A stretch of DNA of 64,000 bases from NCBI GenBank assembly GCA_963681965.1, contig OY820579.1, forward strand, positions 32,001-96,000. The letters are read 5' to 3'. Positions 28,237 to 41,049 of this stretch are shown in pieces. The stretch comes from a bacterium. Lineage in GTDB: Bacteria > Electryoneota > JAOADG01. Numbering within the stretch: position 1 is the stretch's first letter; the number at the start of each line of letters is the position of its first letter. The notes under the pieces are model-generated. The model was not told the origin of the DNA, ran no database searches, and worked only from the letters and a program-made list of their open reading frames with translations. The position numbers were made by a program, and so were the translations under genes.

Positions 28237-29475
28237 CTATTTGAAAAAGGGTGCCAGAGAAATATATACTCCGGTTAAGATTGCAGTTGTAATGACTCCG
28301 CTAATATTCGCACCGATTGCATCGGGGAGAATGATCGCTTCGTTATTCACCTCGGAAACGGATTTCTGAGCGACTTTGGCAGTGGTCGGTACGCAGGAAA
28401 CTCCGGCAATTCCGATGGTCGGATTGAATTTTCCGCGTTTGATGTAGTACAGGATGTAACCTCCCATCAGTCCACCAATTCCCGACAACAAGAGTGCGAC
28501 AATTCCGAGTATCAGCAGCAGCAGTACTTTTGGATTCAGGATAGTACTAGCTTCGCAGAGGATTCCGAGCAACAATCCCAGAAAGAAGGTCGAACCATAG
28601 AGCACCGGACCTTCAATGAATTCTTGAATTTTTTTGATCCCTGCCTCACGCACGGCAACACCAACAAAAAGCGAGAGAAACAACGGTGCAGCGACGGGAA
28701 ATAGCAAACATAGAACAGTGCAGGAGACTACGGCGAATGCAAGTTTCTGTCCGGAAGTAATATTGCGGATTTTTTTCGGTGGCTCAGCTTTGATCCCTCG
28801 AAGTTTTCGGGGAACTAGCAACTTTATTAAATATGGATACCCACCGTAGGTCAAACCGAGATAGAGATATGCCACCACGGTGATTGGGACGAACGTATGC
28901 TTCGCTAATGTCAACGAAGTGTAGAGAACCATCGGACCATCGGCACCACCAACCATTGCAATCGAAGCGGCTTCCCCTTTATCGAGACCCATCGCCATCG
29001 CGATCGGAAACGTGGCAACGGTTCCCAATTCGGCGCAGAGCGCTAGAAACATACTCTGGAACGGTTTGGCGATAACGTAGCCGACGTCCAACAGGACACC
29101 AATGCCCATAAACACGAGACATGCAATGAGACCGTTGCTGAAGGTGAAAGTATAGATCGGTTGGAGAAAATCGATCTGCAGGATTGTCATCAGATCGTCG
29201 GTTTTCGCTACCAGTGGTGCGACAAATAGATTTCCGGTTTTTGCACCGACTGCAGCCGCCGACACAGTGTCGAGTGAAAGGACTCCGGCATTGACCGCGC
29301 ACATACCGAGACCCATCGGGATCATAAGCAGCGGTTCAAGCACTTCTTTCTTACCCAGATAAACCAGCACCATCCCGAGAATCATCAGGCAGATCCGCGA
29401 TATGACAAGCATGGGATGGGCTTCCACCATGGTGGCGATACCACCGAACAGATCGAGAATATTGAACGAGTTCAT
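28237..29475 (-). CDS. Na+-translocating decarboxylase beta subunit (OadB/MmdB family)
   Basis: EPLLMIPMG, FMGIG, GGADGP, AGVSCVP, GANISGVI. Confidence 0.93.
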   Translation of the reverse strand: MNSFNILDLFGGIATMVEAHPMLVISRICLMILGMVLVYLGKKEVLEPLLMIPMGLGMCAVNAGVLSLDTVSAAAVGAKTGNLFVAPLVAKTDDLMTILQIDFLQPIYTFTFSNGLIACLVFMGIGVLLDVGYVIAKPFQSMFLALCAELGTVATFPIAMAMGLDKGEAASIAMVGGADGPMVLYTSLTLAKHTFVPITVVAYLYLGLTYGGYPYLIKLLVPRKLRGIKAEPPKKIRNITSGQKLAFAVVSCTVLCLLFPVAAPLFLSLFVGVAVREAGIKKIQEFIEGPVLYGSTFFLGLLLGILCEASTILNPKVLLLLILGIVALLLSGIGGLMGGYILYYIKRGKFNPTIGIAGVSCVPTTAKVAQKSVSEVNNEAIILPDAIGANISGVITTAILTGVYISLAPFFK

Positions 29476-29485
29476 AGAAAGTCCA

Positions 29486-29599
29486 TCACTTCTTGAAGCG
29501 GATGAGTACCGACAATCCTTTGATCATGGCGGCAACGAAAAATGAGACGATCCATCCGATCAGATAGACTGTCGCTGCGAAAATTACCGGATCGGTCAT
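29486..29599 (-). CDS. 37-aa single-TM protein, probable extra subunit of the decarboxylase pump (absent from ORF track)
   Basis: Hand translation MTDPVIFAATVYLIGWIVSFFVAAMIKGLSVLIRFKK; ATG abuts the upstream stop, GAGGAGG RBS. Confidence 0.75.
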   Translation of the reverse strand: MTDPVIFAATVYLIGWIVSFFVAAMIKGLSVLIRFKK

Positions 29600-30022
29600 T
29601 TAAATTTCCTCCTCGGAATATTCGATCAGCAGTTCTCCGGTTTGAACGGAATCACCTTCATTCACATGGATAATTTCGATACGCCCATCGTCCGGTGAAT
29701 AGATCTTGGTGATCATTTTCATGGCATCGATCTCGAGCAGTACTTCGTGCCATTTCACTCGCTGTCCAGATTTCACATGGATCTTGTGCACAACACCGGA
29801 TAAGGGAGAATTGATTTGATCGACCCCCTCGCTTTTCGGTTTCGATTTCGGAGTGATTCGTTCCACTTCCGAAGCAGTAATCATCGATGGCAAATCGGAA
29901 AGCTTCTCCACTTTCGGAGGATGATGCGATTGAGCGGATACATTATCCGATTCGTCGTCTTCAATCACTTCAACATGTACCTCATACGGAACGCCATTCA
30001 CGGAGACGCGGTACTTTTTCAT
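29600..30022 (-). CDS. Biotin carboxyl carrier subunit
   Basis: MKKYRVSVNGVPYEVHVE; biotinyl-Lys motif DAMKM. Confidence 0.9.
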   Translation of the reverse strand: MKKYRVSVNGVPYEVHVEVIEDDESDNVSAQSHHPPKVEKLSDLPSMITASEVERITPKSKPKSEGVDQINSPLSGVVHKIHVKSGQRVKWHEVLLEIDAMKMITKIYSPDDGRIEIIHVNEGDSVQTGELLIEYSEEEI

Positions 30023-30336
30023 GTTGTCTTCCTGTCAATTTGGTGTGATAAAAACAGTTGTGTTCTTCCAATCCCGCTCCACGATTCAGTCCCGGGTGGG
30101 GATTGAAGATAGCGGATGTGATGAATAACGAATTTTTTGCTTTCGCAGGCTGCGATCGCCGCCATAATTGCAGCAACGACTTGCCCATCGGGAGTCGACG
30201 GTGACGGAACCGCAGAAACAACGGCAACCTGTTCCCGTTGTTCGCGTCGTTCCCGGTACTTCGTAGCTTTGCGGGCAGCGATAATTGCAATTACCGCGAT
30301 CACCAGAAGGATGAGCAATATCAGATATTCATTCAT
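30019..30336 (-). CDS. OadG/MmdD-like membrane-anchored subunit
   Basis: N-terminal TM, VVAAIMAAIA, WSGIGR. Confidence 0.8.
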   Translation of the reverse strand: MNEYLILLILLVIAVIAIIAARKATKYRERREQREQVAVVSAVPSPSTPDGQVVAAIMAAIAACESKKFVIHHIRYLQSPPGTESWSGIGRTQLFLSHQIDRKTT

Positions 30337-30369
30337 AGTCTATCCTGATCAGCGATCGGATCGATGCGA

Positions 30370-31917
30370 TCATAACGGTATCGTTCCATGTTTTTTCGGT
30401 GGACGCAATTCCCGTTTCGATTCGAAAGTTGCGAACGCGAACAATAGATACTCTCTGGTATCGCCGGGTTGAATGATGCTGTCGATCTGACCGTGACTCG
30501 CAGCAACATACGGCGAAGCGAATTTATCGCGATACTCTTCGATTTTTTCCTCGCGCAATGCCTGTTGATTCTCCACCGCTTCGAGTTCTTTCTTATAGAG
30601 AAGATTGACGGCGCCTTCGGCACCCATCACGGCGATTTCGGCAGTCGGCCAAGCGAATACGCGATCGGCACCCAACGCTTTAGCGCACATTGCCAAATAC
30701 GAACCGCCATAAGCTTTCCGCAAAATCACCGTTACTTTCGGAACGGTAGCCGCCGAATAGGCGAAGAGCATTTTTGCACCGTGACGAATGATACCCCGAT
30801 GTTCCTGTTCGATTTCAGGCAAGAAACCCGGCACATCGACTAACGTGAGTAACGGGATATTCATTGCATTACAAAACCGAATGAACCGAGCCGCTTTATC
30901 CGATGAATCGATATCGAGTACCCCAGCCTTCACCGAAGGTTGATTGGCGACAATTCCGATCGTTCGACCACCGATCCGTGCCAGACCGATTACAATATTC
31001 GGAGCGAATAACTGGAATATTTCCAAAAAATCGCCATCGTCGATGATTCTGGTAATCACATCCCGGACTTCGTAGGGTTCTCTGGGATCGTCGGGAATGA
31101 TACTATCCAACTCATCATCGTGTCCAAAATCGAGCGTACCGTAACGGGCAGTACGCGGTGGATCGATCGCGTTGTTTTGCGGCAGGAAGGACAATAAGCG
31201 CTTGCTCAGTTCGATTGCAGCCTCGTCGCTTTCAACTACAAAATGTGCCAAGCCCGCCTTCGAAGAAGCGACTCGGGCACCGCCCAACTCTTCAGCTGTA
31301 ATTGATTGTCCAGTAACGGCTTTGATGACATCGGGACCGGTTAACAACATCTTCCCGACTTTATCGACCATAATGACAAAATCTGTCAGTGCCGGAGAAT
31401 AAGCCGCGCCACCGGCACACGGTCCGGCAATGATCGAGATCTGCGGTACGACGCCCGACAGGAGCGTGTTGTGATAGAAGATTTCGCCATAACCGTGAAG
31501 CGATTCGACCCCTTCCTGAATTCTCGCACCACCGGAATCGTTGATCTGAATAAACGGAGCTCCGCATTTCATCGCTTGTTGCATCGCGGAAACAATCTTC
31601 TGGGCATGCATTTTTCCGACTGCACCGCCACCGACGGTAAAATCCTGCGAAGCGACAAATGTCAGGCGTCCGCGGATCGCACCGCAACCCACGATCACAC
31701 CGTCGGCAGGAAATTTCGATCCATCCGAATCACCCGGCGCCGTTGCAAACAATCCAAACTCTTGAAAAGTACCGGGATCGAGCAAGTAGTCGATGCGTTC
31801 GCGAGCCGTGAGTTTTCCGGACGAATGTTGCTTCTCTACGCGTGCAACACCACCCAGCTCATACATTTGGCTCTGACGTTGATCCAGTTTCTGCGATTTC
31901 TGCTTTGTTGTAGCCAT
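30370..31917 (-). CDS. Acyl-CoA carboxyltransferase (methylmalonyl-CoA decarboxylase alpha-like)
   Basis: GKLTARERI, DSGGARIQEG, GPCAGG, DVPGFLP, RKAYGG, KKHGTIPL; start placed at MATTK. Confidence 0.92.
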   Translation of the reverse strand: MATTKQKSQKLDQRQSQMYELGGVARVEKQHSSGKLTARERIDYLLDPGTFQEFGLFATAPGDSDGSKFPADGVIVGCGAIRGRLTFVASQDFTVGGGAVGKMHAQKIVSAMQQAMKCGAPFIQINDSGGARIQEGVESLHGYGEIFYHNTLLSGVVPQISIIAGPCAGGAAYSPALTDFVIMVDKVGKMLLTGPDVIKAVTGQSITAEELGGARVASSKAGLAHFVVESDEAAIELSKRLLSFLPQNNAIDPPRTARYGTLDFGHDDELDSIIPDDPREPYEVRDVITRIIDDGDFLEIFQLFAPNIVIGLARIGGRTIGIVANQPSVKAGVLDIDSSDKAARFIRFCNAMNIPLLTLVDVPGFLPEIEQEHRGIIRHGAKMLFAYSAATVPKVTVILRKAYGGSYLAMCAKALGADRVFAWPTAEIAVMGAEGAVNLLYKKELEAVENQQALREEKIEEYRDKFASPYVAASHGQIDSIIQPGDTREYLLFAFATFESKRELRPPKKHGTIPL

Positions 31918-32333
31918 CTTACGAAGCACCTGTCGGGTAAAGGGGTATCGAGAGGGAAGAGTGAGTTCCTGATTAAGGGGATCGTCTGAGCTTTGAAGTA
32001 CTTTTCCGATCCTCATTACTCTTGAAAAATAATCAAAAAAGGGAATTCGGACAAATTTTTCAGGCGAAACAAATGAACCGTTTCGCTTATAGACTTGTTT
32101 TCGATACAACTAATTGCGTAATATTGGTTCAATCGGCAAGTTTCTTGTTGTTAAATAATAGTCTGTTATTTATAATCACCAGATTATTCGTGATTCGGTT
32201 CACAATAATATTGTACGATCAAAACGAGTTTAGTGCGGTAACGGAAAAGATTTATCGATTTTGTACAAACGGCATTCAACCTAGCTTGATTGCATTACTA
32301 TTACTATCGATCGAAATACTCGAAGGGAGGAAG

Positions 32334-32666
32334 ATGAAAATTATCGATACTCCGTTTACGGTACTTGACTGGTCTGAAATCGCAAGCGATTCGATTTCGG
32401 GATCAATCGGGATATGCGATTGGCAAACCCTCGAAACAGGCAATGTTCGGATTCGCAAGGTTCGATATCAGCCCGGTTTTCAAGCGGATCATTTCTGCAA
32501 ACGCGGACACGTGGCACACGTCCTTTCGGGTGATTTGACGATTGCATTGAACGACGGTACGATTCACTTGCTTCAAGCCGGGATGAGTTTCGTAACAGCC
32601 GACGACGAAGCCAACCCACATGCGGTTTCGACAATCAATGGTGCGACGGTGTTTATCGTAGATTAA
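32334..32666 (+). CDS. DHCW-motif cupin-fold protein
   Basis: GGGAGG RBS; YQPGFQADHFCKRGH; C-terminal GATVFIVD. Confidence 0.85.
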   Translation: MKIIDTPFTVLDWSEIASDSISGSIGICDWQTLETGNVRIRKVRYQPGFQADHFCKRGHVAHVLSGDLTIALNDGTIHLLQAGMSFVTADDEANPHAVSTINGATVFIVD

Positions 32667-32678
32667 GTTGGCGGTCGA

Positions 32679-34922
32679 TTAGACTGAAGGAAACTGCCAC
32701 TGCAATAGGCGAGATTTATATTCGCGACAGAAGAGTTCCGCTTCCTGTTTCTTACCGTTGAACATCACGGCATGAATCAACCCAATACCAGCGACAAACT
32801 CGAGTTCGTAACGCAATTCCTGATTGGTTTCGGTCGTGATGGCGAGTACCAGTCGCAGCAATTTGCTGCCATCGGTTTGTGGAATCAGTTTGTATCCATC
32901 ACTTCGAGCCCGCCCACTCCCCGGCAATTCAAGCATCCGCTTCAATTGACTTGCCATCCGGAAACCGTGGACATCGTTTTCCCAAACGTAGTTTCCGAAC
33001 TGCAACGGCAATACCGCAAGTGCCGGACCGAACAGCGATAGCAATCCACTCTTGCCGGAACCAGTGTGATCGGGATCGGCTTCATCCAATGCATCCAAAT
33101 ACCAGTGTCCCGAAGTTTTTACCGCATTCAGAACTTGCTTGCCGTCATCCAATAAAAAGCGTCCGTATAGTCCAGAGCGTATTTTTACGATCACATCGTC
33201 TGTAGTAAATCCGGACGATAACCGGTAATTCCACTCCCCGCCGATAATCGAAAATGGAAAATAATCTTCCAATTTGGTGGGGAATTGAGCAACGAAATCA
33301 GTTATGAGATCGCCCGGTAGCAGCTCTCCCTCAGCCAGATAGTGGGTTTGATTGCCTCGTTTGGCGACGAGACTAGCCCACTTCGCTGACAGCGTTTGCG
33401 CACCGGGATACCAATCCGATTGGAGTTGGACATGGAGATGCGGTTCCGGCGAACGTCCACTGTTTCCGACACGACCGACTTCTTGACCGGCGTTGACATG
33501 CTGTCCGATCGCAACTTTCACGCTGCCATTCTGAAGGTGTGCTAACAAAGAATATTCACCCTTCGAATGATAGATCGAAACGTAGTTTCCGAAGGGATTT
33601 TCGGTATCGACCGTTTGCGGTGGATTGTCGGGAAGATAATTCACGAAAGCAACTACTGTTCCGGCAGCCGGTGCCAGTACCGGTAGTCCGTAACCATAGT
33701 AATCGGTCAAAGAGAGACAAGGATATGAAGCAGATCGTTTATCGCGATCCAGCAACATCAAATCCCAGGCATACTTACCAATTCCATTATGGGTGGGTTG
33801 ACCGTCCACGCTTTGTGTCAGCGTCCATTGTCCGTAGTGCGGCATGCGGAAAGAGGTCAGTGCGTTGCCAGAGGTTCTCCGCCAGCGCCAATATTGCCGA
33901 AGATTACTCTCGGCAGTCCCCACATTCGCCAGTGGATACACATGAATACCCTTTAATATTCCGAGCCGGAAGGGAAAGAGTAGTATTAGAATACCGATCG
34001 CAAAGGGGAAAGCAAGTGGCGGCAGGTCGCTGGGTGCGAGAAAAATCTTCGTTGCAACCGCGAGAACTCCAACCAGCACAGTTCCGAGCAATGCAAAGAA
34101 AATACCGCGCCAATTCGGCAACACAAAAACACCGCACAAAGCTCCAGCCGCGAAAACACAATTGAACGCGGTTAGCGCAGTTTCTTCACTGAATAATTGC
34201 GCATGCACAAAAAGATTAACGAACAGGATTCCGATACCAGCACCGACGACCATCGCAATTGCGGTGATACGGGTTCCGAGCAGGATCCCGGTTAAAATTA
34301 AGAGACCTGCCAGAACACTGGTCTGGAATGATGTTGCACCGATCACCCTAAGAAATAAATTCACCATATCGGGTAATCGCGCAGTTAAATGCTCATTGAG
34401 AGCGAGCAACCACGGAATGTAGTTTTCACTATGTGCCTGACTTATCGGGATCCGCGATTGTGGTACCATCCGCGTCGATAAAAGCCCCACCCAACTAGCC
34501 AACACAAAGGGTAATGCCGTAGCGGACAAACCGTATTGCCAGCCCAACCAACTGGTCAACATAGCACAGAGGACTGCGGCAAAGATCGCAGCAAGTGGTA
34601 CTAAAAAGAGCATCGAAAGGGACGGCGACAGATAGAGCGAAAGCGCCAATCCGGTTAACAAACCCGCCGCTCCAAAAATACCGGCACGGAAGTAAGCACG
34701 GTCGGCGAAATACAACTTTGCAAAGAGATGGGCAGAAAGCGCACCGAGTAAACCGTAAAATCCGTGGTGAAGTTGGAGAAAAGTGGCTGCTAAAAATAGG
34801 AGACCGGTGCGACGGCGACCGGTAAATAGAACGGCTCCATAGGCAGTGAGAAGATCGTTAATCAGCTCGCGCAACACTTGGAGCCGATTAGATTTGAGAA
34901 CGCTGCCGGTTGCATCACTCAA
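32679..34922 (-). CDS. Urea-transporter-family membrane domain fused to an M23 peptidase and an unknown C-terminal domain
   Basis: About 10 TM segments with two LPF/FPF repeats; TH...WD, GNYV...AHL, GNSGRSPEPHLHVQ. Confidence 0.85.
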   Translation of the reverse strand: MSDATGSVLKSNRLQVLRELINDLLTAYGAVLFTGRRRTGLLFLAATFLQLHHGFYGLLGALSAHLFAKLYFADRAYFRAGIFGAAGLLTGLALSLYLSPSLSMLFLVPLAAIFAAVLCAMLTSWLGWQYGLSATALPFVLASWVGLLSTRMVPQSRIPISQAHSENYIPWLLALNEHLTARLPDMVNLFLRVIGATSFQTSVLAGLLILTGILLGTRITAIAMVVGAGIGILFVNLFVHAQLFSEETALTAFNCVFAAGALCGVFVLPNWRGIFFALLGTVLVGVLAVATKIFLAPSDLPPLAFPFAIGILILLFPFRLGILKGIHVYPLANVGTAESNLRQYWRWRRTSGNALTSFRMPHYGQWTLTQSVDGQPTHNGIGKYAWDLMLLDRDKRSASYPCLSLTDYYGYGLPVLAPAAGTVVAFVNYLPDNPPQTVDTENPFGNYVSIYHSKGEYSLLAHLQNGSVKVAIGQHVNAGQEVGRVGNSGRSPEPHLHVQLQSDWYPGAQTLSAKWASLVAKRGNQTHYLAEGELLPGDLITDFVAQFPTKLEDYFPFSIIGGEWNYRLSSGFTTDDVIVKIRSGLYGRFLLDDGKQVLNAVKTSGHWYLDALDEADPDHTGSGKSGLLSLFGPALAVLPLQFGNYVWENDVHGFRMASQLKRMLELPGSGRARSDGYKLIPQTDGSKLLRLVLAITTETNQELRYELEFVAGIGLIHAVMFNGKKQEAELFCREYKSRLLQWQFPSV

Positions 34923-35067: not shown

Positions 35068-36450
35068 TCACTTTCGGAGATGTTCCGGTAGTTGATCGAG
35101 TTGCTTCCAATATTCGACAGTTTCCGCTTTGCGAACGATGTGTGTCTCGCCTTGTTCGTCGATTAAAATTACTGGCGGTCGTGTATGAATAAACTGCGTC
35201 GACTGGGTAAAATTGTATGCCCCGATGTTGCGGACGACTAAATGATCGCCGGTACGCATCTGCGGTAATGAGGTATCGTGACTCAACACGTCGATGTTCA
35301 TGCACAGATTTCCGAGGATCGTGGTTCCCTCGGTCATGACGCCGGTTTCCGCCGAAGCCCGCATATCGTACTTATACCAGTAAACATTCGAGAGCAAATT
35401 GATGCCGGCATCGACTACGATCGCTTTCCGATCGCCACTTAACCGCCGTTGACTGACGACAGTGGTAACCATGTGCATCGACTCGTCCACCATCGCTCGA
35501 CCGTGTTCGAACATTAACAGTGGCAACTCGTCGGTAGAGAACGGACCTTGCAATAGTATCGGACAAATTGCTTCGGCATACATATTGAAATCCGGGCAGG
35601 ACTGCTCACCCGGCAACCAAGCGGAATGGAGCGTATTTTTCGATGCAAAGCCACCGCCGAGATCCCAGTATTTGAGCTTTATATCAAAATCGTTGCGAAG
35701 CAGAGTGGCTAACTCGACGATCTTCGTTGCTTGCTGCGAATACATATTGACATCGTCGATGTAGGTTCCAATGTGACAGTGAATACCGACTAATTCGAGA
35801 TGCTGACTATCGACGATTCGCTTTGCGACGGTATAAGCATCGCCGCTTTCGTATTGGAATCCAAAACGCGACCACGGTGGATAGTTCAATTCCAGTGCGA
35901 TACGGATTCCAACTTCGACTTTTCGATTCAATTCGCGCGCAACTTCTTCCATCAAGTAATATTCATCGAAACTATCCAAATTGATAATTGCGCCATCTTC
36001 GACTGCTCGCGTCAAATCCTGACGCGATTTATCGGGACCATTGAAAACGATTTGATTTCCGGGAATTCCGTTTCGTCGAGCCATCTCGTATTCGGTACCC
36101 GAAACGACTTCCGCCCATGCCCCTTCGCTATGCAATGTCATCGTAACGGCATCGAGGTAATTCGTTTTATAACTGTATGCGAGTTGTACTCGAGGATATC
36201 GCGGACCGAAGGCTTGCATCAACATCCGGTAGCGACGCCGGAGCGACGATTCCGAAATCACATACAGCGGCGAACCGTACTTCTTGACCAATTTTGCAAC
36301 CGAGACGCTATCGATCGAACTGTAAGGATAGGCAGAGTGGGGACGACCGTATTTGTTGGTCAATCCGACCACATTGCGAATAATTGTCGGCTTTTCCCAA
36401 AACTCTTTACGAATGGAATCGCCTTCATTCGGGGTAAATTGTCCCGTCAT
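35068..36450 (-). CDS. PLP-dependent fold-type III decarboxylase (DAP/Orn/Arg decarboxylase family)
   Basis: YGSPLYV, YSYKTN (PLP Lys), FNGPDK, HCHIGT, DLGGGF, EHGR, GNLCMNID, GAY. Confidence 0.9.
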   Translation of the reverse strand: MTGQFTPNEGDSIRKEFWEKPTIIRNVVGLTNKYGRPHSAYPYSSIDSVSVAKLVKKYGSPLYVISESSLRRRYRMLMQAFGPRYPRVQLAYSYKTNYLDAVTMTLHSEGAWAEVVSGTEYEMARRNGIPGNQIVFNGPDKSRQDLTRAVEDGAIINLDSFDEYYLMEEVARELNRKVEVGIRIALELNYPPWSRFGFQYESGDAYTVAKRIVDSQHLELVGIHCHIGTYIDDVNMYSQQATKIVELATLLRNDFDIKLKYWDLGGGFASKNTLHSAWLPGEQSCPDFNMYAEAICPILLQGPFSTDELPLLMFEHGRAMVDESMHMVTTVVSQRRLSGDRKAIVVDAGINLLSNVYWYKYDMRASAETGVMTEGTTILGNLCMNIDVLSHDTSLPQMRTGDHLVVRNIGAYNFTQSTQFIHTRPPVILIDEQGETHIVRKAETVEYWKQLDQLPEHLRK

Positions 36451-36452
36451 TA

Positions 36453-37559
36453 TTACTCCTTTTCTCCATGTCCAGCACGATCGTCTCGATAAACGACTTC
36501 ACCATGCACAATCAGTCCTTCCAACGCATCCAATTCACAAATAATATCGACTGCATGTCGAGCGAAAGTCACGCCACTACGATAGTTCGGCAACACTCCG
36601 GGATCTTGTCCCAGTGCCAATTGTAGGTTTGCATACGGTAGATTCTGCCCTGATCCGGTCGTAAGATAGCACCACGATGGAAACCGGGGATTGATTTCAA
36701 TCAGGTAAAACATCCCGCTCTGTTCGTGTCGCATCAATTCCAATTCACAGGGACCGCGCCATTGCAAAGCTTCGATGACTCGTCGCGACAGTTCCAAGAG
36801 TTCGTTATCGCGAATCGTAATCCCTGCCCACGCTTTGCCTTTTTCCGTCAACCGCAGTTTACGCATCGGTACTGCGCCGATTAAATTCCCTTTGCCATCG
36901 CCAACGGCGCAGACATTGTATTCCTCACCGGGAATCATGTTCTGCACCATGATCGGAATACCCCATTTGGCGCGAAGTTTTTCAAAATAGATCACCGCTT
37001 CCGACCAGGAATGCGCAATATATGCTTCGTAGAACACCCCTTTGATTACCGCCGGAAATCCTGTCCGGGCAATGGCTCGATCGAGCGACGGTAGGTCGGT
37101 AACGGTTTCAGTGATTGGAACCGGTAGGTCGTTTTTCGAACAAAACTCGACTAATCGTGCTTTGGAACGCATTCGCAACGATTTCAGATCGGGAATAAAA
37201 GTACCGATCCCCATCGTAGTAAGATCGTCGCGGATCGAATTATACAGATCGAGTTCGGAATCAAGATTGGGGATGATCGCATCAAGTTTCACGCGCGAGT
37301 TGATATAGTGAATTCGATCAAGCGTAACTTCGGCACCCGTGTTGGGATAAGGGATGAGATAAACCTGATCGACGATATCTTTATCGAAGCTTCCAGTATC
37401 ATAGGTGTCGTAAGTCAGACCAATAATCAAGCCATCGTACCCGCCTTGACGAATCGATTTCGCCACAGCGATTCCGGGGGCAGGATTATCGGTCGCTTGT
37501 AATCCGGTGATTGCCACAGCTTTCGGACGAGATGCACTGTAACTATCGCTTTTTATCAT
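36453..37559 (-). CDS. ATP-grasp ligase (CarB/PylC-like)
   Basis: AIIPNLDSEL, FPAVIKG, VQNMIPGEEY, LIEINPRFP; AGAGGA RBS before MIKSD. Confidence 0.9.
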   Translation of the reverse strand: MIKSDSYSASRPKAVAITGLQATDNPAPGIAVAKSIRQGGYDGLIIGLTYDTYDTGSFDKDIVDQVYLIPYPNTGAEVTLDRIHYINSRVKLDAIIPNLDSELDLYNSIRDDLTTMGIGTFIPDLKSLRMRSKARLVEFCSKNDLPVPITETVTDLPSLDRAIARTGFPAVIKGVFYEAYIAHSWSEAVIYFEKLRAKWGIPIMVQNMIPGEEYNVCAVGDGKGNLIGAVPMRKLRLTEKGKAWAGITIRDNELLELSRRVIEALQWRGPCELELMRHEQSGMFYLIEINPRFPSWCYLTTGSGQNLPYANLQLALGQDPGVLPNYRSGVTFARHAVDIICELDALEGLIVHGEVVYRDDRAGHGEKE

Positions 37560-37649
37560 CAGATGCTTCCTCTGCACAATAATCCCGAGCATCGCTTCCG
37601 ATCGAAATTCGGATCACACCGTCGTGAATATCGGCTCTTAAACATTCTA

Positions 37650-37886
37650 TTACAGTAAAGAGAATTTCTTAATTTGTGTCACGAATTGTTCGATATCGAA
37701 GCGTGCTTCACGCTCGTCGACTTCGAACTTATTCATCACATCCCGAAGGATTGAATTCGGTTCTTTCTCAGCCAGCAATTGCTGCATGATATAAGTTCCG
37801 GAATTGTTGAGTGTATAGGTAATGCCGGTAGCATGGTCGAATAAAAACCCGCTTTCGGTCAAGGTAATGCGGTCATTGAGGGGCAT
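37650..37886 (-). CDS. Stand-alone PqqD-family protein / RiPP recognition element (RRE)
   Basis: 78 aa: ESGFLFDHATGITYTLNNSG...KFEVDEREARFDIEQFVTQI (3 strands + 3 helices pattern); GGAG RBS. Confidence 0.88.
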   Translation of the reverse strand: MPLNDRITLTESGFLFDHATGITYTLNNSGTYIMQQLLAEKEPNSILRDVMNKFEVDEREARFDIEQFVTQIKKFSLL

Positions 37887-37997
37887 TCTCCGTCCCATCC
37901 AATCAAGCGAGATTTTCCAATCTCGACATTCTTCGATACAACGGGTACGGCGGTAATACGTTGATTGCAAACAATCCAGTAAGATCGACGACCCGAC

Positions 37998-38189
37998 TTA
38001 AAATATCGCCAGCAGTCTCGACCAATCGACATTTAATCCAAGCAAAGCGCGCTTTTCAGCCAATTGTGCCGTTTCACCATAACCTTCGCGTACGGAACCA
38101 TTGCTCAACGTAACGAAGCTGCGATACTGCTTTCCAAAAACTTCCGTTATCATCGAAATCACGATAACGCGTTCGATTTCTTTTTCCAT
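37998..38189 (-). CDS. 63-aa hypothetical protein
   Basis: GAGG RBS before MEKEIERV; GYGETAQLAEKRAL resembles a dsRBD/HicB-like hairpin-helix. Confidence 0.5.
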   Translation of the reverse strand: MEKEIERVIVISMITEVFGKQYRSFVTLSNGSVREGYGETAQLAEKRALLGLNVDWSRLLAIF

Positions 38190-38304
38190 GGTAACCCTCA
38201 ACGGACTGCTCATTCTTTGCTCCAAGGTCACAGATAGGTATTTATCCGCTCGAGAGACAATACGATTGAAATTACGGTTTAAAACTCCCAAATCAACATC
38301 ATAA

Positions 38305-38865
38305 CTATTCTTCGATCATCGTCTTTAGTCTCGCTACCGCAAAGCTGAAATTCGCCTTCACGGAACCGACGGTTTTCCCGGTCAAACTCGCGATTTCCTG
38401 ATTGGAAAGTTCTTCTTCATGTCGCATAATAAATACCGAACGCTGTTTCGGCGACAATTTCTCCAATGCAGCCTTTAATTGAGCTTTTCGCTCTTTGAGC
38501 ATCACGATCTCATCGGGAATCGGATTATCACTCGGAACGTTCTGGAAAAGATCTTCGTCCTCGCCCCATTCGTCAGTGTTACGAAACACCGCCCACATTT
38601 TCCGACGCCGCATATGGTTCAGCGAAAGATTGTAGACAATCCTAAATACCCAGGATGAGAACGCACATTCGCTTCGAAACCGCGGCAGCTCTTCCCATGC
38701 TTTCAGAAAAGAATCCTGCACCACATCTTCCGCTTCCTGACGATTGCGTAGCAACCGGGTAGCGAGGATCAATGCGCGTTCGCGATGTGCAACCACCAAC
38801 CGATTGAAGGATTGCGTGTCGCCCGACACCGATGCGAGGATTAGTTCTGTTTCGTTCCGATTCAT
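38305..38865 (-). CDS. ECF sigma-70 factor
   Basis: GDTQSFNRLV, AEDVVQDSF, FSSWVFRIVYN, region 4 LSNQEIA...GSVK. Confidence 0.93.
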   Translation of the reverse strand: MNRNETELILASVSGDTQSFNRLVVAHRERALILATRLLRNRQEAEDVVQDSFLKAWEELPRFRSECAFSSWVFRIVYNLSLNHMRRRKMWAVFRNTDEWGEDEDLFQNVPSDNPIPDEIVMLKERKAQLKAALEKLSPKQRSVFIMRHEEELSNQEIASLTGKTVGSVKANFSFAVARLKTMIEE

Positions 38866-39026: not shown

Positions 39027-40154
39027 CTAATCTTGACGCTTATTCCACTTTTGCAATCGATCGCGGATATTTTTCTCAGATATTCCCAGTCTTCTGGCGG
39101 CTTCACTCCGATTGCCATTGGAATCGACTAGCGCTTGCTCGATTAACTTGCGTTCGTACTCTTCCACCAACTCGAACAGATTTTTCGATGGTTCGAAAGG
39201 ATCGGGATTCGATTGCGATTTCCTCTCACTTTCGTCAATTTCAGCCCGATCAGGTTCAATTCGATCAGGAGCATTCACTGAAAGTGTAGTGTTTACCGTT
39301 TCACTTGGTTGATTAAATAGGACCTGATTCTCATCATTATTCTTAATTTCAGACGCTGAAACCGGGAGAATGACCGTTTTTTCGACCGAACCGGAAAATT
39401 GAGGCGGTAAATCCTCTTCATCAATTAAATTTTTTGTCGCTAGAATGACAGCATGCTCGATCGCGTTCTCTAATTCGCGGACATTTCCGGGCCAATCATA
39501 CCGCAAAATTCGCTGCCAAGCTGCCGGAGTCAATCCACGAATTGATTTCTCATTGCGTGTGTTGATGGTTCTGACAAAGAAATCAGTAAGGGGTCGGATG
39601 TCTCGTCTTCGAAATCTAAGTGGTGGAATTTTAATAACTACCACATTCAAACGATAAAAAAGATCCTCTCGGAAAGAACCTTCTCGAACCATTTCCGCCA
39701 AGTTGCGATGCGTAGCCGTAACAATCCGAACATCGACGTTGATCTCTTGCCGACCACCGACCCGATAAAAAGAGTGATCTTGCAGGAATCGGAGAAGTTT
39801 TACCTGAGTATTGGCAGGTAAATCGCCAATTTCATCAATAAACAGTGTCCCTTGGTGAGTTTCTTCGATGAGACCCTTGCGATCATGATCGGCGCCGGTA
39901 AAAGCACCTTTATCGTACCCGAAAAGTTCCGATTCCAACAAGGCTTCGGGGAGAGCGGCACAATTCACTGCGGTAAAAGGACATTTCGCTCGAAATGAAG
40001 AGGAGTGCAAGAGACGAGCAATTAATTCTTTGCCAGTTCCCGATTCACCTTGAATGAGAACGGTCGCAACAGTCGGAGCGACACGTTTGGCAATATTCAC
40101 GACCGATTCAAATTCACCGGATTCGTAAATAATATTTTTTTGCCAATCGCTCAT
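39027..40154 (-). CDS. sigma-54 enhancer-binding protein lacking an N-terminal sensor domain
   Basis: GESGTGKE near residue 36, ESELFG...[15 protein letters not shown]-terminal Fis-type HTH. Confidence 0.93.
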
Positions 40155-40251: not shown

Positions 40252-41049
40252 TTAATTTCTCTTATTCGAGGTGATTCCTATCATTCGGAACAGTTCCCAA
40301 GCGATTTCTTTGGCTTTTTGTCCATAGGCATGATCAGGTGCCCTAATTGTAAATGCAAATACATAAATTTTAGTATCTTGCTCGATCCATCCAACATATC
40401 GACCCATCACCGATTTTCCATCGATCATTTGCGAGCCGGTTTTCCCGTGAAGGATATATGAATTCGTCGAGTCTTGGATCGTGATTGCTTTAACGATGTC
40501 AGTTGAGCGCTTGGAAAATGGGAGTTGATTTCGTGTTAACTCGGTGAGAAATTCGATTTGTTGCCAATCGGAGATCAGTATAGAACCCTTCGATAGCCAG
40601 AAGCGATCAATTCCTGCCGAAATATCGCGGTTTCCATAATGAATTGTATCAAGATATGCCTGCATTCGTGTTTTACCGATGCGGCGAGCTAATTCTTGAT
40701 AGAACCAAACTACCGAATTTTGAATTGCTGTCCGCAGACAATGGTCGTGATTCCAAGAAGTTATGTTATCGGAAACGCCATTCCACTTGATAATTTCTTC
40801 GGGATCGGCAATTGCTCCCGCTTCGAGTGCAAAGATTGAATTGGGGATTTTGAAAGTTGAACAAGGTAGATGGGGTATCGAGCAGCCGGATGCATTCAAC
40901 ACCAGTGTATCGCCGGATGTCAGCTCGACAATCGCACCAGAGGCAGTATAACCATTGAAAAGAGTATCGGTTTTCAGCTCCGAGACCGCATAAACCGAAG
41001 AGGAAATTACGAATAAAAGTCCAATCGAACTGATAAGCAATCGATTCAT
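40252..41049 (-). CDS. Class D beta-lactamase / OXA-like serine enzyme
   Basis: STFK, SVVW, YGN, FWL, KTG; signal peptide. Confidence 0.88.
   Translation of the reverse strand: MNRLLISSIGLLFVISSSVYAVSELKTDTLFNGYTASGAIVELTSGDTLVLNASGCSIPHLPCSTFKIPNSIFALEAGAIADPEEIIKWNGVSDNITSWNHDHCLRTAIQNSVVWFYQELARRIGKTRMQAYLDTIHYGNRDISAGIDRFWLSKGSILISDWQQIEFLTELTRNQLPFSKRSTDIVKAITIQDSTNSYILHGKTGSQMIDGKSVMGRYVGWIEQDTKIYVFAFTIRAPDHAYGQKAKEIAWELFRMIGITSNKRN

Follow-up and report, generated by a model that had tools for sequence, protein, structure and literature searches.

A stand-alone PqqD-type protein and the leader-like tail of a decarboxylase: a probable RRE ligand built into an enzyme

Introduction

RiPP recognition elements (RREs; RiPP, a ribosomally made peptide with post-translational modifications) are used as a class-independent flag for RiPP gene clusters, and their ligand is assumed to be a precursor peptide. 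A stretch of 64,000 nucleotides from a bacterium of the Electryoneota (GTDB lineage JAOADG01; GenBank assembly GCA_963681965.1, contig OY820579.1, positions 32,001 to 96,000 of the forward strand; "the window" in the following, with positions counted from its first letter) encodes such an element, a small PqqD-type protein, together with an ATP-grasp ligase, a decarboxylase dependent on pyridoxal phosphate (PLP) and a membrane protein. This raises the question of what the RRE binds. A first-pass annotation of the window had proposed that the ligand may be the decarboxylase itself, since its N-terminus resembles a RiPP leader. The results described here suggest that the RRE probably docks on this N-terminal tail, and that the leader is apparently built into an enzyme. 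The features on which the argument turns are all encoded on the minus strand:

35068–36450 (-), fold-type III PLP decarboxylase (Orn/DAP/Arg family), 460 amino acids (aa), closest to FslC and LysA; both domains matched in Pfam (PF02784 and PF00278)
36319–36450 (-), N-terminal extension of the decarboxylase, residues 1–44, a disordered conserved tail (from the start of homology, the model confidence and alignment A1)
36373–36408 (-), residues 15–26 (KEFWEKPTIIRN), predicted RRE-docking strand with W18-x-x-P21-x-I23 (from the interface of the predicted complex and motif conservation)
37650–37886 (-), stand-alone PqqD-type RRE, 78 aa (Pfam PqqD and lasso B1 matches)

Results and Discussion

The Decarboxylase and Its N-Terminal Extension

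The ATG of the decarboxylase (36448–36450) follows the ATP-grasp stop codon TAA after 2 nt and has AAGGAG just 5' of it. Scores against NCBIfam models were 263.2 bits for FslC (cut-off 500) and 238.8 bits for LysA (cut-off 297.9), both below the cut-off; the best solved relative was FslC (7kh2, E 3e-71), followed by LysA (1e-45) and BtrK (1e-24). The catalytic residues K95, H226, G266-G267, E315, R318, C383, D387 and Y412 did not vary in 120 sequences. Matches to LysA and FslC models and solved structures (Pfam, NCBIfam, PDB) begin at residues 42–46, and the extension is therefore about 44 aa long; it exceeds the N-terminus of LysA by about 30–35 aa. An AlphaFold2 (AF2) model of the monomer, calculated with 120 homologues, had an overall pLDDT (predicted local distance difference test) of 91, with 45, 59, 53 and 65 for the first four blocks of ten residues and at least 94 afterwards; residues before 38 were without secondary structure, and the tail was not placed. 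Positions 36346–36450 (-) encode residues 1–35, and W18-E19-K20-P21-T22-I23 is encoded by 36382–36399. The location of W-E-K-P-T-I in an extension of about 45 aa ahead of the catalytic core, as read from the sequence in the first-pass annotation, was thus confirmed.

Conservation of the Tail Motif

A lone occurrence of such a motif is not significant, because background open reading frames (ORFs) and shuffled sequences carry it fairly often: one [WYF]xxPx[ILVM] within the first 45 aa was present in 33 of 602 background ORFs of at least 250 aa (5.5%), and shuffling of the decarboxylase tail produced the motif in 1522 of 20000 trials. For its conservation 280 homologues were examined (120 proteins and 80 loci each from genomes and metagenomes, sets which probably overlap in part), of which four were set aside, three being cut at the N-terminus and one having a broken frame. 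The pattern [WYF]xxPx[ILVMF] was present in all of the remaining 276, which have an intact N-terminus; the aromatic residue was Tyr in 229, Phe in 40 and Trp in 7. Conservation of the motif in RRE-linked homologues had been set beforehand as a test of the docking proposal, and every complete tail kept it. In the filled columns of alignment A1, both P21 and the aromatic residue were invariant (119/119 each), and the YxxPx-hydrophobic part is the sole portion of the tail that is kept by divergent subfamilies. In a metagenome scan carried out with divergent relatives as query, the genes among the matches listed were all tailed.

In a tree of 116 cluster representatives, constructed with the tail columns left out, all seven canonical tails fell in one clade, which also holds 8 of 11 other motif-bearing tails. 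The neighbours of this clade have short N-termini; the nearest tail-less decarboxylases are P0196, P0216, P0222, P0208, P0238 and P0205.

Linkage of Tail and RRE

Loci were sampled from at least 80 species genomes, belonging to many phyla, and at least 80 metagenome contigs. The four genes for the PqqD-like protein, the ATP-grasp ligase, the decarboxylase and the membrane protein are all that 80 genome loci share with the window. The two further members of this cassette are:

36453–37592 (-), ATP-grasp ligase (Pfam PF15632 and PF02655)
32679–34922 (-), fusion of a urea-transporter-like membrane domain with an M23 peptidase and, at the C-terminus, an unassigned domain (Pfam UT, residues 24–316; M23, residues 411–502)

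The ATP-grasp gene stands directly upstream of the decarboxylase gene in 74 of 80 genome loci, the remainder being cut by contig ends. A profile search found a PqqD-like ORF in 68 of these 80 loci, directly upstream of the ATP-grasp gene; in eleven of the twelve others the contig ends too early, and L003 alone has room for it. Where the contig permits a check, the PqqD-like gene is present in 68/69 genome loci and in 58/58 metagenome loci. It is always immediately ahead of the ATP-grasp gene, usually with abutting or overlapping frames. Of 160 loci, 112 have M23 downstream of the decarboxylase; most of the others end too soon to tell.

Identity and Groove of the RRE

The start of the RRE was set at M29 of the ORF 37650–37970, in register with the family alignment. 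The protein scored 38.2 bits with Pfam PqqD (PF05402; cut-off 23.4) and 46.5 bits, below the cut-off of 70, with the NCBIfam model lasso_PqqD_Strm. Searched against solved proteins, the family profile matched TbiB1 (1.8e-13), TfuB1 (1.5e-9) and PbaB1 (9x90; 3.9e-6), with only E 0.015 for PqqD proper (3g2b). By these sequence matches the protein is a lasso-B1-type RRE.

Discrete lasso RREs read the motif [Y/W]xxPx[L/V/I/F/A], according to the accessible part of PMC13381572, and the decarboxylase tails match a recognition motif of this type. For LppB the same part of that source describes a hydrogen bond from D70 to the leader tyrosine, a kink at the proline that is held in place by N33, and a sandwiching of this proline by F74; for PbaB1 it describes how a leader tryptophan is held by Q79 and E75. 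HMMER alignments, taken together with those residue assignments, place LppB N33, Y60, D70 and F74 on N27, position 54, D64 and F68 of the RRE in the window. LppB chain residues 51, 78, 88 and 92 fell on RRE positions 27, 54, 64 and 68, and in PbaB1 the counterparts of positions 27 and 64 were chain residues 60 and 97, with an offset of 18 between chain numbering and that in the accessible part of PMC13381572, which was the same in LppB and PbaB1. Of 129 RREs, 128 keep N27, and all have Tyr or Phe at position 54 and Phe, Tyr or Trp at position 68; D64 is present in 104, and the exceptions track Phe tails. The window's own pair combines a Trp tail with an RRE having E60 and D64, which are the positions of E75 and Q79 in PbaB1. 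The C-terminus of the RRE is variable and without a fixed acceptor residue, and no acyl carrier protein (ACP) or LysW-like protein is present.

Predicted Complex and Covariation

The complex was predicted with ESMFold2 from the RRE alignment and the tail alignment. The RRE with the tail scored 0.70, and the best of three controls 0.02; at least 95% of the contacts agreed between runs, and the pLDDT of the partner was at least 56. The score mark was reached by 58/80 solved complexes and 2/110 mismatched pairs, counts which hold only roughly, because own alignments were used. The predicted interface comprises tail residues 15–26 and, on the RRE, beta3 (22–30), residues 32–34 and 52–56, and alpha3 (60–75). 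The tail would thereby lie in the canonical groove, with the known geometry of B1 proteins and their leaders, and the prediction is thus in favour of docking.

RRE position 64 had the highest mutual information with the tail aromatic residue (0.43; next column 0.22). Its distribution was as follows:

Tyr tails (107 loci), RRE position 64: Asp 102, Asn 4, His 1
Phe tails (20 loci), RRE position 64: Tyr 13, Ser 4, Phe 2, Gly 1; Asp 0
Trp tails (2 loci), RRE position 64: Asp 2

Asp or Asn was thus found with 106/107 Tyr tails and 0/20 Phe tails (Fisher test 2e-22, relatedness being ignored). Absence of the Asp with Phe tails would be expected if its partner in the hydrogen bond is lost. On the tree of the decarboxylase core the tail switched between Tyr and Phe at least five times; independent pairs numbered three on supported branches and five on all branches, and all were concordant.

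Search for Another Ligand

The 600 bp upstream of the RRE were compared for conserved small ORFs in 69 regions (68 genome loci and the window); the largest family occurred in six of them and looks like an out-of-frame overlap, and it was rejected as a precursor. Gaps between the cassette genes are short. An ORF of 97 aa (37998–38291, minus strand), located between the genes for a sigma factor and the RRE, gave no match in Pfam and NCBIfam and is not shared with any of the 80 loci; it was likewise rejected. A search with the window's own tail for shorter proteins resembling it yielded no candidate. With a profile of 60 tails, 63 matches were obtained among proteins of 17–81 aa; the 18 which were read were all decarboxylase fragments, frameshifted or chimeric pieces, and neither stand-alone motif peptides nor a split form consisting of a free peptide and a tail-less enzyme were found among these 18.

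The host genome consists of one contig and is 99.9% complete. It contains a single PqqD match, and with the tail profile the decarboxylase alone was significant (E 5.9e-12; next match 1.01). A lasso B2 leader peptidase (transglutaminase core, PF13471) had no match in this genome. The first-pass annotation had described a RiPP-like cluster with no obvious precursor, and this description stands, inasmuch as the searches above revealed neither a conserved precursor ORF nor a stand-alone motif peptide.

A Second Conserved Block in the Tail

Twelve residues past the proline the columns of alignment A1 reveal another conserved element:

36346–36357 (-), second conserved block N32-K33-Y34-G35

In these columns N was present in 101/120, K in 111/120, F or Y in 118/120 and G in 112/120 sequences; the column at K33 contained K 111, R 7, P 1 and S 1. 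At the position twelve residues past the proline (P+12), 250 unique tails had K 215, R 10, N 7, P 5, T 5 and S 3, where the N cases represent a shift by one residue, with K at +13, and a few segments were wrongly picked by the pattern. Since the Lys at P+12 is not fixed, Lys33 was rejected as an obligatory acceptor. The block N-K-[FY]-G is outside the predicted RRE interface.

Other Members, Variants and Neighbours of the Cassette

The membrane protein has no hydrophobic segment past residue 329, and RQYWRWRR follows the last one; the M23 domain therefore probably faces the cytoplasm. Its residues H378, D387, H462 and H495-x-H497 are at least 90% conserved in 70 homologues. Comparison of the ATP-grasp protein with solved structures gave one weak relative (2pn1, E 1e-6), which provides no lead to the substrate.

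A sister cassette, apparently new here, was detected in 11/80 metagenome loci and 0/80 genome loci. After the RRE gene it has two ATP-grasp genes in succession, then the decarboxylase gene and last a gene in which the urea-transporter domain is joined to a CobB-type sirtuin instead of M23; this was verified by Pfam on the following examples:

L084:3224–9012, L092:4609–10268 and L090:360–3658, sister cassette in metagenome loci

The tails in this cassette keep the docking motif, and 9/11, counted by eye, have Lys at P+12, the rest of the tail being different. A large tetratricopeptide repeat (TPR) protein is encoded upstream of the sister cassette in L084 and L092. A further variant is P0197 (871 aa), a natural fusion of ATP-grasp and decarboxylase, which has YVRPSI in the linker between the two enzymes and whose tail stretch is without lysine.

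Just upstream of the cassette in the window are genes for an extracytoplasmic function (ECF) sigma factor, 38305–38865 (-), and a sigma-54 activator without receiver domain, 39027–40154 (-); ECF sigma genes were also found near the cassette in L068, L078, L119 and L150. Farther upstream, 40252–41049 (-) encodes a secreted-looking protein of 265 aa with an S-T-F-K motif, by eye resembling class D beta-lactamase or penicillin-binding domains. At the other side, a cupin with DHCW motif, 32340–32666 (+), converges on the end of the cassette (NF038084, 116.5 bits; cut-off 70). Beyond it, genes at 28237–32109 (-) were read by eye as a carboxyltransferase, a small membrane protein, a biotin-carrier protein and a membrane beta subunit; this group resembles a sodium-pumping decarboxylase.

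Weighing of the Explanations

The proposal that the RRE docks on a built-in leader is supported by motif conservation, linkage of the genes, the lack of a precursor in the searches described, the retained leader-contact residues, the predicted complex and the covariation; on these grounds of sequence and modelling docking is considered quite probable. The tail motif [Y/F/W]-x-x-P-x-[I/L/V], from W18 to I23, would most likely be clamped as an additional beta-strand in the groove between beta3 and alpha3 of the RRE. Its aromatic residue would occupy a pocket with RRE residue 54 as lining and residue 64 as cap, the proline resting against N27 and F68; the ligand would be a whole enzyme rather than a small precursor. 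As purposes of docking, the first-pass annotation had offered a scaffold for ligase and decarboxylase or a presentation of the segment GLTNKYG for modification. The purpose could tentatively be a non-covalent tether, by which the RRE holds the decarboxylase beside the ATP-grasp ligase. An amide made by the ligase might then be decarboxylated at once, following a logic like that of FslC, at the cytoplasmic face of the fusion of urea channel and hydrolase, and the second block, N-K/R-F/Y-G, could constitute a second contact. A tether would fit with the finding that the tail is invariably fused to the enzyme, and with replacements of K by R, which keep the charge. Clamping of the tail motif by the RRE, with a tether as the slightly favoured purpose, would appear to be the likely explanation as a whole.

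Several observations weigh against it. Linkage of motif and RRE was counted in tailed loci only. L003 (L003:1–9420, Planctomycetota) encodes an ATP-grasp ligase and a tailed decarboxylase, and has no PqqD-like ORF in the 6.8 kb upstream; it is the sole exception among the 69 informative genome loci. Solved complexes of B1-type RREs with YxxPxL leaders exist (5v1v, 6jx3, 9x90, 9x8z), and since complexes so alike are solved, the successful prediction indicates likeness, possibly memory, and is not proof of binding. The covariation rests on few events, as the sign test on the independent pairs gave p 0.25 and cannot reach 0.05 with so few pairs. The AF2 model is that of a monomer, and the tail may pack on the partner subunit of a homodimer. 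As to a tether in particular, the P0197 fusion still keeps YVRPSI, and the near-fixed Lys at P+12 is not explained by a tether alone.

This Lys is the starting point of another reading, possible and rather doubtful, which shares the docking step. The RRE would present the stretch past the motif, the ligase would load an amino acid on Lys33, the decarboxylase would act in cis on the tethered group, and the channel-fused amidase would remove it, so that the enzyme is its own carrier. RREs present the segment downstream of a leader to the partner enzyme, Lys side chains serve graspetide ATP-grasps as nucleophiles, and BtrJ and BtrK act on a tethered glutamate. In agreement with an acceptor, Lys is placed exactly at P+12 in most unique tails (215/250) and in 9/11 tails of the sister cassette despite differing neighbours; in the same cassette M23 is exchanged for a CobB-type lysine deacylase, and P0197 retains the motif, even though its ligase and decarboxylase are already joined. 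However, R, P, T and S also occur at P+12 (10, 5, 5 and 3 of 250), the commonest replacement keeping the charge and not the nucleophile, and the tail of P0197 is without any Lys. The substrate of FslC is acylated on the distal amine, from which a carboxylate acceptor would be expected, not a lysine; ligation, decarboxylation and release of a simple amino acid have no obvious net use; and since N-acyl-diamines resemble acyl-lysine side chains, the exchange for a sirtuin could fit a small-molecule route as well. An RRE-guided, enzyme-tethered assembly line, with the decarboxylase as its own carrier and export of a small amine or amide, extended in the two-ligase cassette and with release by M23 or sirtuin, is graded as an unlikely outcome, if a conceivable one.

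The tail could also serve within the decarboxylase, for example as a lid or dimer contact, with the PqqD-like protein binding an unlinked peptide or the ligase only. The conservation of the N-K-F-G block is indeed tighter than docking would require, a low pLDDT in a monomer can reflect an absent partner subunit, and L003 has the tail and no PqqD gene nearby. This reading would not account for the way in which a groove residue of the RRE follows the tail's Tyr/Phe state, for the retention in the RRE of the residues which hold the Tyr and Pro of a leader, or for divergent subfamilies keeping the YxxPx-hydrophobic part alone; moreover, no other candidate ligand was found among small ORFs, the 18 short matches to the tail profile which were read or in the host genome. 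It seems improbable. Least probable by far is a sacrificial precursor, i.e., a tail that is a true RiPP core, which is modified, cut off by M23 and exported, the enzyme being consumed as in borosins. As in a leader, a docking motif is followed by a conserved block about ten residues on, and the same operon encodes a peptidase fused to a membrane protein; yet the sister cassette has a sirtuin-type deacylase, not a protease, in the place of the peptidase, no split form was found among the 18 of 63 short matches which were read, and an enzyme of 460 aa per product molecule would be costly. The pores of urea transporters, in addition, are narrow.

Significance and Comparison with Known Systems

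No publication describing the four-gene cassette was found in the literature searched, and supplements of RRE surveys may list such orphan RREs. The accessible parts of two such surveys mention neither decarboxylase nor urea (PMC12710340) and neither decarboxylase nor ATP-grasp (PMC7470986). The cassette is distributed over many phyla, and culturable carriers include Pedobacter and Mucilaginibacter. If binding is true, "orphan" RREs which lack a precursor in genome mining could be explained in this way, and pairs of leader and RRE would be reusable as protein–protein connectors or as guides for carrier arms. The covariation of Tyr with Asp and of Phe with residues other than Asp offers a ready mutational test of docking.

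The closest counterparts are the discrete lasso RREs TbiB1, TfuB1/FusB1 and PbaB1, and LppB, which are alike in fold, family, ligand motif, contact residues and predicted geometry. In lasso systems, however, the ligand belongs to a short precursor with a variable core, whereas here it would be the N-terminus of a PLP enzyme of 460 aa; they include a B2 protease and a cyclase, whereas no B2 match exists in the host genome, a lasso cyclase context is absent and the partner is an ATP-grasp ligase. In contrast to lasso RREs, Phe is accepted here as the aromatic residue of the motif, with matching loss of the Asp. In its sequence features the recognition pair is thus of the lasso B1-leader type, with one exception: no separately encoded short precursor whose core becomes the product was found in the searches above, and in every case the motif is joined to the enzyme.

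PqqA begins with W-x-x-P, and PqqD is likewise a small stand-alone protein of this fold which binds a peptide for a partner enzyme; for the RRE in the window such binding is predicted from sequence and model. PqqD proper was a much weaker match to the RRE family profile, as noted above for 3g2b. A PqqA/PqqE context was not seen near the cassette, where no search beyond the single PqqD match was made.

With FslC, the N-citrylornithine decarboxylase of rhizoferrin synthesis, and with LysA the decarboxylase shares its catalytic residues, and decarboxylation of an amino acid that a ligase has first coupled is, by analogy, a plausible common logic with FslC. FslC aligns only from residue 42 and is therefore without the tail, and the ligase of its pathway is an NRPS-independent siderophore (NIS) synthetase, in place of which an ATP-grasp ligase is encoded here. 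In the systems of BtrI/BtrJ/BtrK (butirosin) and LysW/LysX, a small protein, an ATP-grasp ligase and a fold-type III decarboxylase likewise occur side by side; the small protein there is an ACP or a LysW-type carrier, whereas it has the PqqD fold of an RRE in the window. Borosin precursors, which are fused to a methyltransferase, and nitrile hydratase leader peptides (NHLP) carry a recognition or substrate segment covalently within a large protein. In both of these the pathway acts on the segment as its substrate; in the decarboxylase such a segment may be a mere docking handle on a downstream enzyme.

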